From Candidatus Thorarchaeota archaeon (GTDB lineage Archaea; Asgardarchaeota; Thorarchaeia; Thorarchaeales; Thorarchaeaceae): a stretch of DNA of 34,318 nt. The first letter of the stretch is position 1, and every line of letters starts with the position of its first letter. Of the stretch, positions 28,681 to 34,318 are shown one piece after another. The stretch spans positions 1 through 34,318 of the forward strand of contig SDNP01000030.1 in assembly GCA_004524445.1 (NCBI GenBank), given 5' to 3'. The notes below the pieces were generated by a model that was not told where the DNA came from, searched no databases, and saw only the letters and a list, made by a program, of their open reading frames with translations. A program made the position numbers and the translations under genes.

Positions 28681-30162
28681 ATGCTTGAGATTCCAAGTTC
28701 AATGAACAATAAGATAGAGCAAGCCATTGAAGCCATCAACCAATCAGGAAAGGTTCTGGCGATTTCACACATTGATACTGACGGCATCACCGCGATGGCA
28801 ATCATAGTTCAGTTTTTGCAGCGTGCGGGAAAGGAATACCTCTGGAAGAATATTCATCAGCTGAACTCAGAGAGCATTCTGACGGTCTTGGAATTGGCAG
28901 AGTCTGAAAAACCGGACACAATAATCTTTACTGACTTGGGAACGGGTCAATATCCCCTCATAGAATCAAGTCTTACAGATTTGCCTTTTGTAAGAAGCAT
29001 AATAATTCTGGATCACCATCTCCCAGGAGATAGAGAACTGCCCAGTAGAAACGATCGAAGAGCGGAGATTATTGAGGTTAATCCATGTCAACATGGTCTG
29101 AGTGGAAGTTCCGACATATCTGGAGCGGGTGTGGCCTTTCTACTAGCATATTTTTACGAATCAGAGAATATTGACCTCATTGAGCTAGCCATAGTTGGAG
29201 CCACGGGAGATCTTCAACGATACTATGGAAGAGGATTCCGTGGACTTAACAAGCAAATCCTTGATTTAGGAAGAGATGCGAGATTCATTTCTGTTGACAA
29301 AGACCTTACTTTCTTTGGAATCAACACTCGACCACTCCCCTATCTTCTATGCTATGCGACCGACCCCTATTTACCAGGCATTACTGGAAATGAAGAATCT
29401 TGTTTCTCATTCTATTCTGATTTGAATATCGATATCAAAAGTGATGATCGCTATAGGGTCTGGATTGACCTTGTTAATGGTGAGAAAAAGAAGGTCATTC
29501 AAAAGCTTGTTGCGCATATCTTAGAAACATATGAAAATCCAGCAATCGCTAAAGGGATTGTCGGAGATGTTGTCAATCTTCTCAGCAGACCAGAGAGAAG
29601 CGAGCTCAGAACAGCCAAGGAATTTTCCACAATGTTAAACGCCTGTGGGCGAAATAGGAGAGCCGATGTAGGAGTAAAGGTTTGCTTAGGAGAACCCGAA
29701 GCAATCATAGAGGGTCGTAACCTCTTACGACAACATCGTGCGAATCTTGCTTCTGCCTTACGACGGATTGAAACAAATGGCTATGATGAAAAACCGGGAA
29801 TGTATATTGTTGATGACCCAGAAACACAAGACACCATAATCGGTATTGTAATTGGAATGGCACAAGGCTCCAAAATAATTCCATGGGAGAAACCGGTGAT
29901 TGGAGTTAGCACAAACACAACAAACAAAACAACCCTCGTTAAGATATCAGGTCGTGCTCGTAAGAATCTAGTCACCATTGGTATTAATCTAAAGGAGGTT
30001 TTCACCAGTGTTGGAAAGGACATCAACGAGAGAGAGGGCAGAACAGTTATTGAAGCAGGAGGGCACCCAATGGCCGCGGGAGCATTTGTTGAAAATGGTT
30101 TTTTGGATGAATTTCTCCGGCTCTCCTCAAACAAGATGGATTCTATCCTAAATTCTAGCTAA
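28681..30162 (+). CDS. RecJ-like DHH/DHHA1 phosphoesterase (archaeal RecJ/GAN, Cdc45 relative)
   Basis: SHIDTDG, FTDLG, ILDHH, GATGD, EFSTMLNACGR, GGHPMAAG. Confidence 0.92.
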   Translation: MLEIPSSMNNKIEQAIEAINQSGKVLAISHIDTDGITAMAIIVQFLQRAGKEYLWKNIHQLNSESILTVLELAESEKPDTIIFTDLGTGQYPLIESSLTDLPFVRSIIILDHHLPGDRELPSRNDRRAEIIEVNPCQHGLSGSSDISGAGVAFLLAYFYESENIDLIELAIVGATGDLQRYYGRGFRGLNKQILDLGRDARFISVDKDLTFFGINTRPLPYLLCYATDPYLPGITGNEESCFSFYSDLNIDIKSDDRYRVWIDLVNGEKKKVIQKLVAHILETYENPAIAKGIVGDVVNLLSRPERSELRTAKEFSTMLNACGRNRRADVGVKVCLGEPEAIIEGRNLLRQHRANLASALRRIETNGYDEKPGMYIVDDPETQDTIIGIVIGMAQGSKIIPWEKPVIGVSTNTTNKTTLVKISGRARKNLVTIGINLKEVFTSVGKDINEREGRTVIEAGGHPMAAGAFVENGFLDEFLRLSSNKMDSILNSS

Positions 30163-30757: not shown

Positions 30758-31192
30758 TCATAAAAGCTCCTCAATCTCAATTTTTTTGATGAGGTCAATT
30801 ATTTTTTCGGGCATTTCCTCCAATGGTAAGCCATTTAGATTGAACCATTTCACCTTAGCATCCTCTGATTCTGGCGTGATATCGGATGTAAGAGCAACCG
30901 CCAAGTAGTGATTTAGGAGATAATGGTATTCTACACCGCCATTAGAGTCCTGAATAATTATGTCATCTGTATCAATTAGCCGGATTATTTCGCAATAGAC
31001 GCCCGTTTCTTCTTTTACCTCTCGACGAACAGCATCAAGCTGTGTTTCGCCAACCTCAATGGCACCACCGGGAACACTCCACAACCCTAGGCCAGGTTCC
31101 TTGACTCTTCGAACCAACAAAACTCCCTTTTCACCGAGAACTACAGCGCCTACTCCAGGTATTGGAAAGTCTGGATAAGAACGGGAAATCAA
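30758..31192 (-). CDS. NUDIX hydrolase
   Basis: Nudix box GGAIEVGETQLDAVRREVKEETG; TTG start at 31192 preceded by AGGTGA overlapping the TPR gene stop. Confidence 0.92.
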   Translation of the reverse strand: MISRSYPDFPIPGVGAVVLGEKGVLLVRRVKEPGLGLWSVPGGAIEVGETQLDAVRREVKEETGVYCEIIRLIDTDDIIIQDSNGGVEYHYLLNHYLAVALTSDITPESEDAKVKWFNLNGLPLEEMPEKIIDLIKKIEIEELL

Positions 31193-31203
31193 GATTAGAT
31201 CAC

Positions 31204-32364
31204 CTAGAATGCGGTAATGGATTCCGGAAGACGGATGCTTGCATTGCATGATGGGCATTTGATAGACCCAGCTGCTCGAACCCGGTTTATATCGTGTGGT
31301 TCGAGCTTTTCTTCGCATCCGCACTGTATACAAGAAACTCTTAGCCAGCCAAGTATCTCAATTGCGCGTTCCCAAGCGTCAAATGCTAGGTCGTCGTAGC
31401 CCATGTCAGCATAGACTTTTGCCAGCTCAATATGTGAGGCTGCGGACCCCGAGTCAATTTTTGACCAGCGCAATAGACAATTCAGGTATCTGGTTCTCCA
31501 CCCAAGTTTTCTGTATGCCTCACAAAGACACTGCCAACAGCTTTCCACCGATTCGACCTGTGCTTCGACTAACTCGAAGTAATCATTGCTAACTACCGTA
31601 TTCCCTTGAAGTTTTGCAACGACAGCCATTCTTACAAGTGCCTCGATATTTTCTGGGTCACGTTCCAAGAGTATTTCAAGGCATTTCTGAGAGGTCTCCA
31701 AATCCCCCTCTCTGAGCTTAAGGTCAGCTTCTAGAAGGTAAGATCGATAGTCATCAGGATTGTTCTCTTGAATTTCTTCAACTATGGGAATGGCTTCTTC
31801 CAAGCGATCTTTTGCCAGAAGTAGATAGGCATAATTGGATTTGGCGGTCAGGAAGTCGGGTTTTTCCTCGATGACTCGCTTCCAGCAGGATATTGAACTC
31901 TCATAATCACCGAGACGGTAAAGGGACAATGCCAGCATAGATTGCAGTCGAATATCATTTGGAAACTGCTCTAATCCGTTTCGAAGTGCGCCTATAGCCT
32001 CAGCGTATTTTCCCTGCACATAGAATACCTTCCCGAGGTCATCCCATGCTCTTGGTTCTGTGGGATCCAAATCCACGGCAATAGACAATTCTTCTTCTGC
32101 ATCTTCATAGCGGCCTAGAGCCATGAGTGCACGTCCAAGAAACAACTCAATCACGGGATGGTCTTCCACTAGTTCCTTTGCCTCCTCAAGAACAGAAACC
32201 GCCGCCTGTGGTTTTTCTGCTTGTACGTATGCAATTCCCAGGTAAACTAGTGAATCGGGTTCATCATAGGAATGACGGGCAATGGGTTCAAGAATTGAAA
32301 GAGCCTTCTCTATTTTACCCATCTCAATTGCCTTTCTGGCTCGATCAATCTCAGATTCATTCAA
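31204..32364 (-). CDS. Tetratricopeptide repeat protein with C-terminal Zn ribbon
   Basis: Repeated TPR units (LGIAY..., LGRAL..GRYEDA, AWDDLGKVFY.QGKYAEA); terminal CIQCG...CPSC. Confidence 0.9.
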   Translation of the reverse strand: MNESEIDRARKAIEMGKIEKALSILEPIARHSYDEPDSLVYLGIAYVQAEKPQAAVSVLEEAKELVEDHPVIELFLGRALMALGRYEDAEEELSIAVDLDPTEPRAWDDLGKVFYVQGKYAEAIGALRNGLEQFPNDIRLQSMLALSLYRLGDYESSISCWKRVIEEKPDFLTAKSNYAYLLLAKDRLEEAIPIVEEIQENNPDDYRSYLLEADLKLREGDLETSQKCLEILLERDPENIEALVRMAVVAKLQGNTVVSNDYFELVEAQVESVESCWQCLCEAYRKLGWRTRYLNCLLRWSKIDSGSAASHIELAKVYADMGYDDLAFDAWERAIEILGWLRVSCIQCGCEEKLEPHDINRVRAAGSIKCPSCNASIRLPESITAF

Positions 32365-32479
32365 TGCTAGTCATTCCGATAGTGATTCCAAAGTGCCATC
32401 AAAAATGATGGGTTCAGTCCTCTCAGTCTATCTAATGCTTCTCAAACGGATTATAAGTACGATTCGTTATGGCAATAAG

Positions 32480-33325
32480 ATGACTAATGCTTCCTATGAC
32501 AATCCTTTCTCTCTTCTGCATGCTGTCAACCTATTGAGTCAGCAATCGAGGATTAACAAGTTTTCAAAGGCAATAGATGAGGTTGTTACTACCGATTCTA
32601 TAGTGTTTGACATTGGAACTGGTACAGGCATTCTAGCATTTCTTGCGGCAAAAGCTGGTGCGGAATCAGTTATTGGAATTGATGTTTCCAAGCAGAATAT
32701 TGATTATGCTCGCAGAGCTTCCAAGGCTAATGAACTGGATGACCGTGTGAAATTCATTCATGTTCATTTTGATGACTTCAATCCAGAGATAAAGGCGGAC
32801 ATCGTCATTTGTGAAATGCTTTCATCCATGCTCTTGGTTGAACAACAAATTCCGGCTATGCGCAGAGTAAATGACAGTCTACTCGGCAATAATGGCACGA
32901 CAATCCCAAAATCCACCACGGTGTATGTTGTTCCAGTTCAAAGCGAATATATGTGGAACAGATTCCAAACAGGAGATTTGAGATTTCCCAAGATGCCTCA
33001 ATCTGTGGGAGGATTAAATGAGGTGGACGATTTGGCTGATATGCAGACCCTTTTCCACGTCGAATATCGGGATTTGAATACTGATTTTCATGTTTCAGAG
33101 AAGCTTTCCTTTGAGATTATAACCGATGGATTTGTACATGGTATTGTTGGCATGTTTGAAGCAGAGCTTACTCCCGAAGTACTTCTTCGCCCCGAAGATG
33201 GCTGGAAGCATCTTTTCGTACCGATCAAACAGGAGAAAAGGGTTAGAAAAGGGGAAATAATTACGATTCAGATTGAGTATACTCCTGGTGAATTTGATTC
33301 CATATCGGTTGCTATCGAGAGCTGA
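32480..33325 (+). CDS. Protein arginine methyltransferase (PRMT)-like SAM-dependent methyltransferase
   Basis: DIGTGTGIL, AAKAGA..VIGID, DIVICEMLSSMLLVE (double-E loop), VHGIVGMFEAEL and GWKH in the beta-barrel. Confidence 0.8.
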   Translation: MTNASYDNPFSLLHAVNLLSQQSRINKFSKAIDEVVTTDSIVFDIGTGTGILAFLAAKAGAESVIGIDVSKQNIDYARRASKANELDDRVKFIHVHFDDFNPEIKADIVICEMLSSMLLVEQQIPAMRRVNDSLLGNNGTTIPKSTTVYVVPVQSEYMWNRFQTGDLRFPKMPQSVGGLNEVDDLADMQTLFHVEYRDLNTDFHVSEKLSFEIITDGFVHGIVGMFEAELTPEVLLRPEDGWKHLFVPIKQEKRVRKGEIITIQIEYTPGEFDSISVAIES

Positions 33326-33445
33326 ATGAGACAAATCATGACAGAGAAAATCAAGAACAGCAGTTAGCATATCAGATGAATCCCTTACACGTAGACATAT
33401 TTTTATCAGAGCAAGTTCGGGAGTGATATGTGGTTCGTGACAAAT

Positions 33446-34111
33446 ATGGAGCTCAAAGGTCCTCTCTGCTACATTCTTGATTATGATGATATTGCTAATT
33501 ATGCTTATCAGACCGCTCAAAAAATCAAGGAATCCGGATGGAAACCAGAAGCAATTATTGGAGTTGCACGTGGGGGTTGGGTGCATGCCCGAATCCAGTG
33601 TGACTTGTTGGGAGTGAAGAATCTCTATAGCGTCAAGATTGACCATTGGGGGGTAACTGCCACAAAAGATGGTAAAGCCAAACTCACATGCCCGCTAGTG
33701 GGTGATATTGAGGATATGCGAGCCCTTGTCGTTGACGATATCACGGATACAGGCGAAAGCTTGACCATGGCGGTTAATCACGTAAGAGAAACCGGAAAGC
33801 CTGCTGATGTAAAGTCGGCAACTCTCATGCACATTGCTGGCTCGAAATTTGTGCCTGATTATTTTGGCGTCGAAGTAACATGGGCTTGGGAGATTTGGCC
33901 CTGGAATTTCTATGAAGATCTCACCTCCCTCATCATGAAAATCTTCGAGGGTGAAAAGGTCCACGAACTCACTACCCCCGAATTGAAGAAGCATTTGAGA
34001 GAGTATAATAATATAGTGCTGTCTGATGAACGGCTATCTAAGGTGAAAGCGCATATGGGCTATCTCGAGAAGATAGAATATCCAAAAGACAAGGTCTGGA
34101 AACTGAAATAG
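33446..34111 (+). CDS. Type I phosphoribosyltransferase (purine salvage, archaeal HGPRT/XGPRT-like)
   Basis: GVARGGW, LVVDDITDTGESL PRPP loop, PDYFG...WEIWPW. Confidence 0.9.
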   Translation: MELKGPLCYILDYDDIANYAYQTAQKIKESGWKPEAIIGVARGGWVHARIQCDLLGVKNLYSVKIDHWGVTATKDGKAKLTCPLVGDIEDMRALVVDDITDTGESLTMAVNHVRETGKPADVKSATLMHIAGSKFVPDYFGVEVTWAWEIWPWNFYEDLTSLIMKIFEGEKVHELTTPELKKHLREYNNIVLSDERLSKVKAHMGYLEKIEYPKDKVWKLK

Positions 34112-34214: not shown

Positions 34215-34318
34215 ATGGCATTTGAGGCTGAACTTGAATTTGTACCAGTGGACGGAAAGAAGAAAGGAGACCTAGAAGACCTGCTTCCAGTTGAGATAGG
34301 ATTGTTTGGAGGTAGTGG
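34215..34318 (+). CDS. Partial 5' end of MTAP/purine nucleoside phosphorylase (family 2)
   Basis: Manual translation MAFEAELEFVPVDGKKKGDLEDLLPVEIGLFGGS(G); IGxxGGSG is the MTAP N-terminal motif; adjacent to the purine PRT; truncated by the window edge. Confidence 0.6.
   Translation, partial: MAFEAELEFVPVDGKKKGDLEDLLPVEIGLFGGS

Follow-up and report, generated by a model that had tools for sequence, protein, structure and literature searches.

A compact PRMT-fold methyltransferase of Thorarchaeota, probably directed at protein arginine and encoded head-to-head with a TPR/zinc-ribbon protein

Protein arginine methylation by protein arginine methyltransferases (PRMTs) is regarded as a eukaryotic trait. 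One of the eukaryotic enzymes, PRMT9, has N-terminal TPR repeats. The residues that bind the substrate arginine are strictly conserved in PRMTs and comprise the two glutamates of the double-E loop and the tryptophan of the THW loop (PMC4860837). Our literature search, which covered few subscription journals, found no paper on an Asgard or other archaeal PRMT, on the function of COG4076 proteins or on the activity of the family described here or its nearest relatives, and a preprint on chromatin evolution (10.1101/2021.11.30.470311) makes no mention of PRMTs.

The window analysed here, which is the whole stretch of 34,318 nucleotides, contains a gene for a PRMT-fold protein, designated P0001, with the following features in and around it.

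31204-32364, minus strand: TPR protein of 386 aa, divergent from the PRMT-fold gene, with a C-terminal zinc ribbon
about 31246-31332, minus strand: CxxC...CxxC zinc ribbon of the TPR protein, invariant and C-terminal
32365-32479, no strand: divergent spacer of 115 bp between the TPR gene and the PRMT-fold gene
32480-33325, plus strand: PRMT-fold methyltransferase gene (P0001), 281 aa, stop codon included in the coordinates
32507-32584, plus strand: N-terminal helices, residues 10-35, equivalents of PRMT alpha-Y and alpha-Z
32603-32683, plus strand: SAM motif I (VFDIGTGTGIL, residues 42-52) and post-I (VIGID, residues 64-68), from the sequence
32810-32848, plus strand: double-E loop CEMLSSMLLVEQQ, residues 111-123, from conservation and PRMT alignment
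32942-33043, plus strand: arm insert, residues 155-188, 34 residues between barrel strands, with invariant F169 and Q174
33128-33205, plus strand: barrel strand VHGIVGMFE (residues 219-227) and DGW loop (residues 240-242), the latter at the THW-loop position
33428-34111, plus strand: phosphoribosyltransferase of purine-salvage type, 69-86% identical to eight full-length relatives
34215-34318, plus strand: first 34 codons of an MTAP-type phosphorylase, ending at the contig end

The P0001 frame translates without an internal stop, and the gene is present in one copy in the 2.79-Mb genome. Its homologues carry the source name Candidatus Thorarchaeota. A longer in-frame ORF opens at 32282, and the stored gene call (P0002, 305 aa) is 24 residues longer than P0001 and would fit the in-frame ATG at 32406. 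The homologues from other genera start at the residue equivalent to 32480, and a TATA-like element, ATTATAAG, can be read at 32450-32457, about 27 nt 5' of the ATG at 32480. Thus 32480 appears the likelier true start codon, and the ATTATAAG element may be the promoter of the gene. At one locus in a genome of the same family (G155:C4:324418-325195), the PRMT-fold gene is matched as two overlapping pieces covering profile positions 20-197 and 182-278, which is a frameshift or an assembly error.

All sequence motifs listed for this gene in the first-pass annotation are present in the translation. These are H..NLLSQQSR (residues 14-24), motif I, EMLSSMLLVE (residues 112-121, with E-x8-E spacing), IPKSTTVYVVPV (residues 142-153), HGIVGMF (residues 220-226) and DGWKH (residues 240-244). 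Conservation was assessed among 33 homologues of 43-80% identity. Within the double-E loop C111, E112, M113, L114, S115, E121, Q122 and Q123 are invariant, as are R24, motif I, F169, Q174, G217, G221, F226, D240, G241 and W242 elsewhere in the protein; H220 is nearly so. The annotation had read an E-x8-E loop and DGW in place of THW, and both readings hold throughout the family, with the double-E loop intact. All three of the arginine-binding residues defined for PRMTs (PMC4860837) are therefore retained, as E112, E121 and W242. Two canonical PRMT motifs are altered. At the THW-loop position the tryptophan is kept, with Asp and Gly standing in for Thr and His. The N-terminal helix reads LLSQQSR (family pattern LLS(Q/H)xSR), in which R24 matches the Arg of MLxDxxR in PRMTs, L18 occupies the position of its Met in PRMT7 and PRMT9, and its Asp is replaced.

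Comparison with solved structures by sequence places P0001 among the PRMTs. The best phmmer matches in the PDB were PRMT7 (1.6e-17) and PRMT1 (1e-16), and the alignment pairs 'DIVICEMLSSMLLVEQQI' of P0001 with 'DIIISEWMGYCLFYESML' of PRMT1 so that both glutamates of the double-E loop correspond. This resemblance is far beyond chance. The family profile pairs 'eDGW' with 'ETCW' of PRMT9, which places TCW at the DGW position. When the C-terminal half of P0001 was the sole query, PRMT5 was the only PDB match (E 0.004), collinear through the barrel, with VHGIVGMFE aligned to LHGFAGYFE, GW to SW and VPIKQE to FPIKQP. Pfam PRMT5_C (PF17286) reached 29.9 bits in P0001 (residues 146-265), just short of its 30.3-bit cut-off, and each of the 33 family members matched it at E <= 0.001, the best at 1.2e-11; the PRMT5 catalytic model PF05185 gave 16.9 bits in P0001 against a cut-off of 22.9. 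PRMT_C (PF22528, gathering cut-off 27 bits) had no match in P0001 at E <= 0.01 and is absent from the Pfam families listed for the 33 family members. Judged by sequence, the barrel thus appears PRMT5_C-like and not PRMT_C-like. The other Pfam matches of P0001 were to generic class-I methyltransferase families, and no NCBIfam family scored above its own cut-off.

An AlphaFold2 model built from the 33-sequence alignment (mean pLDDT 90.6, pTM 0.86) was compared with the PDB. The top Foldseek matches were all PRMT7, CARM1, PRMT9, PRMT5 or PRMT3 (E about 1e-23, query TM 0.72-0.80), with a PRMT-type barrel present in the model. In an exhaustive structural search, 15 PRMT representatives aligned over 260-279 of the 281 residues with Z of 21.9-27.7. 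The aligned PRMT spans are 303-323 residues, so that P0001 is 25-45 residues shorter. The architecture of Rossmann domain, beta-barrel and arm proposed in the first-pass annotation is borne out by these full-length matches, and homology of P0001 to the PRMT fold is essentially certain. The next match after the PRMTs was PrmA, with Z 16.4 over 140 residues of the Rossmann half alone, and the other matches below the PRMTs were likewise Rossmann-only.

These alignments bear directly on two database names. NCBI calls many family members PrmA, the ribosomal protein L11 methyltransferase, and the Pfam PrmA model matches at 6.4e-16, but that match covers only positions 153-239 of the 296 in the profile, which is the Rossmann core. 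The dedicated model TIGR00406 (prmA) gives 51 bits against a cut-off of 183, PrmA structures align over only 137-140 residues, and the C-terminal barrel of P0001 has no PrmA counterpart. Identity with PrmA is effectively refuted by domain architecture. Several homologues carry the JGI label 'predicted RNA methylase', which we take to be the name of COG4076, and Pfam TRM5-TYW2 matches weakly within the Rossmann part (27.6 bits against a cut-off of 28). An RNA methylase is nonetheless very improbable, given that tRNA and rRNA methylases align over about 140 Rossmann residues with Z of 13-15, compared with Z of 22-28 over the full length for PRMTs, and that P0001 is without an RNA-binding domain. 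Moreover, domain searches give the COG4076 label to plant PRMTs as well (PMC11165092).

The dimerisation arm had been described as looking shortened, which the model does not support: the 34-residue insert at residues 155-188 is present and carries the predicted dimer contacts. Prediction of a P0001 homodimer scored 0.75, compared with 0.00 for the best of three controls, with contact agreement of at least 76% between runs and a partner pLDDT of at least 89. A mark of 0.75 was reached by 20 of 30 solved same-chain pairs versus 1 of 23 solved single chains, counts that apply only roughly to P0001 since a custom alignment was used. In the predicted complex, residues 157-175 of the arm contact three stretches of the second copy (6-25, 49-58 and 76-84), which we take to be the canonical head-to-tail arrangement of PRMTs. 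Because PRMT dimers have already been solved, passing this mark may express no more than likeness to them and is not proof. P0001 probably forms a PRMT-style homodimer through residues 155-188.

Based on these results, we propose that P0001 is a compact, probably homodimeric, SAM-dependent PRMT-fold methyltransferase whose most likely chemistry is methylation of protein arginine (probability roughly 0.6). Arginine chemistry is favoured because the arginine-holding residues are invariant; the replaced Thr and His of THW and the replaced Asp of MLxDxxR are points against it. SAM would be bound through motif I, R24 and the acidic residue of post-I, and E112 and E121 of the double-E loop would grip the guanidinium group of a protein arginine. 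W242 of the DGW loop would pack on the arginine side chain, and one or two methyl groups would then be moved to a terminal nitrogen, with MMA, SDMA or ADMA as the possible product.

The first-pass annotation had called this architecture eukaryote-type. A profile search of 1.84 billion representatives returned 252 proteins below 1e-30. After the Thorarchaeota family itself, the next relatives scored 130-170 bits, and most of them have MLxDxxR, SE...E and THW; PRMT_C was matched by most of the ten that were scanned. Bacterial proteins that combine PRMT_C with these motifs are common. The solved eukaryotic PRMTs scored 70-106 bits against the same profile. Since bacterial THW-type relatives and archaeal relatives with an ICEMLDT motif outscore the solved eukaryotic enzymes, the PRMT part of the description stands and the eukaryote-specific part does not. 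Look-alikes in the ESM Atlas form clusters of 280-540 aa from bacteria and even from phages. The three relatives whose gene contexts were inspected are all bacterial. One of these, a 396-aa PRMT_C protein on a JGI metagenome contig (L015:1-9191), lies amid at least five radical-SAM genes and a PqqD-like gene, in what looks like a peptide-modification cluster.

Phylogenetic trees placed the Thorarchaeota sequences in a clade of their own (support 99-100). A split with 95% SH-like support put this clade, a group with the signature ICEMLDTALI-E-QVP and a small clade of PRMT9 and TPR-fused bacterial proteins on one side, and the mass of bacterial THW-type proteins on the other; PRMT9 (P0282) was the one named eukaryotic sequence serving as an anchor. 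The first-pass annotation had called for a phylogeny against COG4076 methylases. Separation from the ICEMLDT (COG4076-type) clade was evident, as the Thorarchaeota sequences lie outside that clade (97% support) and the P0001 loop reads ICEMLSSMLLVEQQIPAM and not ICEMLDTALI-E-QVPVM, while sisterhood of the two groups was weak (65, IQ-TREE). Within the remaining small clade, module 1 of insect PRMT9 (P0282) groups with proteins of 543-548 aa (SH-aLRT 99). The metagenomic protein P0281 has N-terminal TPR repeats fused to a PRMT-like module, and P0270 has an extension of about 260 aa. PRMT9 may have prokaryotic TPR-PRMT relatives.

Members of the ICEMLDT group occur in Methanobacteriaceae, Thermoplasmata and a few bacteria, and the group probably makes up the core of COG4076. 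Its gene has two fixed neighbours in Methanobacterium sp. ACI-7 (L041:2428-4213) and at 52 further Methanobacteriaceae loci (among L030-L101): at 51/52 loci it follows a NikR gene, and at 52/52 it runs into the start of a gene for a hydrogenase maturation protease of the HycI type. These neighbours suggest a role for the ICEMLDT protein tied to nickel or to hydrogenase maturation.

Such relatives raise the alternative that P0001 is a repurposed PRMT-fold enzyme that would methylate an acceptor other than protein arginine, for instance a different side chain, a peptide, a cofactor-related protein or a small guanidino compound. The missing THW His and MLxD Asp are consistent with repurposing, as are the grouping (95, SH-like) with a family that adjoins NikR and hydrogenase protease genes in almost every Methanobacteriaceae locus and the occurrence of a bacterial relative in a radical-SAM/PqqD cluster. 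Against it, both glutamates, the tryptophan and the SAM-binding arginine are invariant in the family, and the arginine-holding residues of PRMTs (PMC4860837) are among these. We consider repurposing unlikely, though it is the most serious of the rival readings, and we retain arginine methylation as the preferred one.

Distribution was examined in 201 genomes of the phylum, of which 44 are other genomes of the same order (Thorarchaeota by source names) and 157 come from the rest of the phylum. The PRMT-fold family was found in 41 of the 44, with full-length matches (E 1e-102 to 1e-138) in 40 of 43 other genomes of the source organism's family and in the only genome representing a second family of this order. 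Among the remaining 157 genomes there was one truncated, more distant relative (G100, 92 bits). None of the 201 genomes had a canonical PRMT_C match that cleared the cut-off. Asgard proteins of 550-610 aa also matched the profile; the one examined (600 aa, G052) matched in its Rossmann part only and is without the double-E loop. A search for longer proteins found no fused form of the Thorarchaeota protein, which is weak evidence given the word filter, and yielded only the bacterial TPR fusion, insect PRMT9 and one unnamed protein of 748 aa. Since the PRMT-fold family was not found in the remaining Asgard families of the sample, and since prokaryotic relatives outscore the solved eukaryotic PRMTs against its profile, simple vertical descent from it to the eukaryotic enzymes is not supported.

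The order of genes around P0001 recurs. At nine loci from other genera it reads NUDIX (minus), TPR/zinc ribbon (minus), PRMT-fold (plus), phosphoribosyltransferase (plus) and MTAP (plus), with the TPR gene present in 9/9, the phosphoribosyltransferase in 9/9, NUDIX in 7/9 and MTAP in 5/9; short flanks cut the remainder. In the window, the NUDIX ORF (30758-31333, minus strand) shares 130 nt with the 3' end of the TPR gene. NUDIX homologues align only from about residue 40-50, so the real NUDIX start probably lies further downstream. Further upstream, 28681-30162 (plus strand) encodes a 493-aa protein with DHH, DHH-CID and DHHA1 domains, a set that presumably fits proteins of the GAN/Cdc45/RecJ type.

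The MTAP gene had been noted as starting about 0.9 kb downstream and as possibly recycling SAM by-products. Its position is as described (ATG at 34215), and the fragment is 45-62% identical to the N-termini of orthologous neighbours, of which one (L005:1-744, minus strand) matches PNP_UDP_1 at 6e-41 and MTAP models at 261-284 bits. The proposed recycling does not hold. Methyl transfer yields SAH and MTAP acts on MTA, so MTAP is not a metabolic partner of the methyltransferase. Additionally, the phosphoribosyltransferase gene, with a TATA-like element of its own, lies between the two genes, and a TATA-like stretch is found about 50 nt before the MTAP ATG.

The TPR/zinc-ribbon gene mirrors the distribution of the enzyme: at a threshold of 1e-25 it was found in 40/43 genomes of the same family, 1/1 of the sister family and 0/157 of the other genomes of the phylum. 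Of the 41 genomes that have both genes, 40 carry them head-to-head on one contig, with about 80-310 bp between the match ends. Independently, TPR repeats and PRMT-like modules are fused in bacterial proteins (P0281 and ESM Atlas clusters). The TPR/zinc-ribbon protein is thus the best functional lead and the foremost candidate for the role of substrate adaptor, partner or substrate of P0001, a proposal to which we give somewhat less than even odds. We are cautious about this link because TPR domains are promiscuous neighbours and fusion partners.

Proteins with RGG tails were also considered as substrates. RG-rich tails in the genome are found in an OB-fold SSB-like protein (G000:C16:71970-72455, minus strand), two proteins that by eye look NifX-like and one short coiled-coil ORF. 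The OB-fold SSB-like family, also recognised by eye (loci L105-L134), is multi-copy, with six matches in the genome, and has Gly/Arg-rich C-terminal tails (GYGGRDRR, RGG). These tails resemble eukaryotic GAR domains and are found in genomes of the source organism's own family and of another family of the phylum. As specific substrates the RGG proteins were rejected, because orthologues with equally RG-rich tails also exist in f12, a family of the phylum where the search for the PRMT-fold gene found none, and there is thus no co-occurrence signal. RGG-tailed proteins are plausible as substrates of P0001.

A broader proposal is that the PRMT-fold enzyme, with its PRMT5-type barrel, and the divergently encoded TPR/zinc-ribbon protein make up a dedicated two-component system for protein arginine methylation that appears confined to Thorarchaeota. 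We regard this as possible but on balance doubtful. In such a system the adaptor would be a separate polypeptide, whereas bacterial TPR-PRMT fusions and PRMT9 carry it in one chain. If true, no archaeal PRMT would have been demonstrated before this one, and the enzyme could serve as a prokaryotic model for the origin of PRMT5- or PRMT9-type enzymes. This Asgard order has a conserved, single-copy enzyme of 281 aa, the shortest among the related PRMT-fold proteins seen, in which the residues that hold arginine are retained and for which a candidate partner is consistently encoded alongside. P0001 makes arginine methylation in Asgard archaea, its targets and the minimum size of a working PRMT directly testable. 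Neither name given to this family in databases, '50S ribosomal protein L11 methyltransferase' or 'predicted RNA methylase', is supported, and the present result corrects both.

Compared with known systems, the bacterial PRMT_C proteins have the same fold as P0001 (TM 0.86-0.90 to ESM Atlas clusters) and score 130-165 bits against the family profile, and some are fused to TPR repeats. They keep MLxDxxR, SE...E, THW and the PRMT_C match, whereas the Thorarchaeota family is without these canonical forms. The ICEMLDT family is like P0001 in its compact size, in its two-domain layout by alignment and in the Gln two residues past the second Glu of the double-E loop. It differs from the Thorarchaeota family, to which it is 27-36% identical within the alignment, in having Asn for His220 and no DGW, and in its neighbourhood, which is NikR and a hydrogenase protease in place of the TPR/zinc-ribbon gene.

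Among the eukaryotic enzymes, chains of PRMT5 (type II) gave the lowest rmsd to the P0001 model (2.5-2.6 A). Unlike PRMT5, P0001 begins at the alpha-Y helix without a TIM-barrel N-terminal domain, and its loop preceding the Trp is six residues shorter. L18 presumably corresponds to PRMT5 Phe327 and PRMT1 Met48, an assignment based on motif spacing and residue numbering. Relative to the eukaryotic PRMT cores in general (PRMT7, PRMT9, PRMT5, PRMT1/3 and CARM1; PDB 5eku, 4g56, 2fyt, 8rbk), P0001 is 18-22% identical, has no N-terminal extension or extra domain, has DGW for THW and LLS(Q/H)xSR for MLxDxxR, and is without a Pfam PRMT_C match. Common to P0001 and these enzymes are the Rossmann domain, barrel and arm, the alpha-Y Arg, motifs I and post-I, the E-x8-E spacing, the Trp at the THW position, the 'hHGxxGxF(E/D)' strand and the head-to-tail dimer, which in P0001 is predicted.
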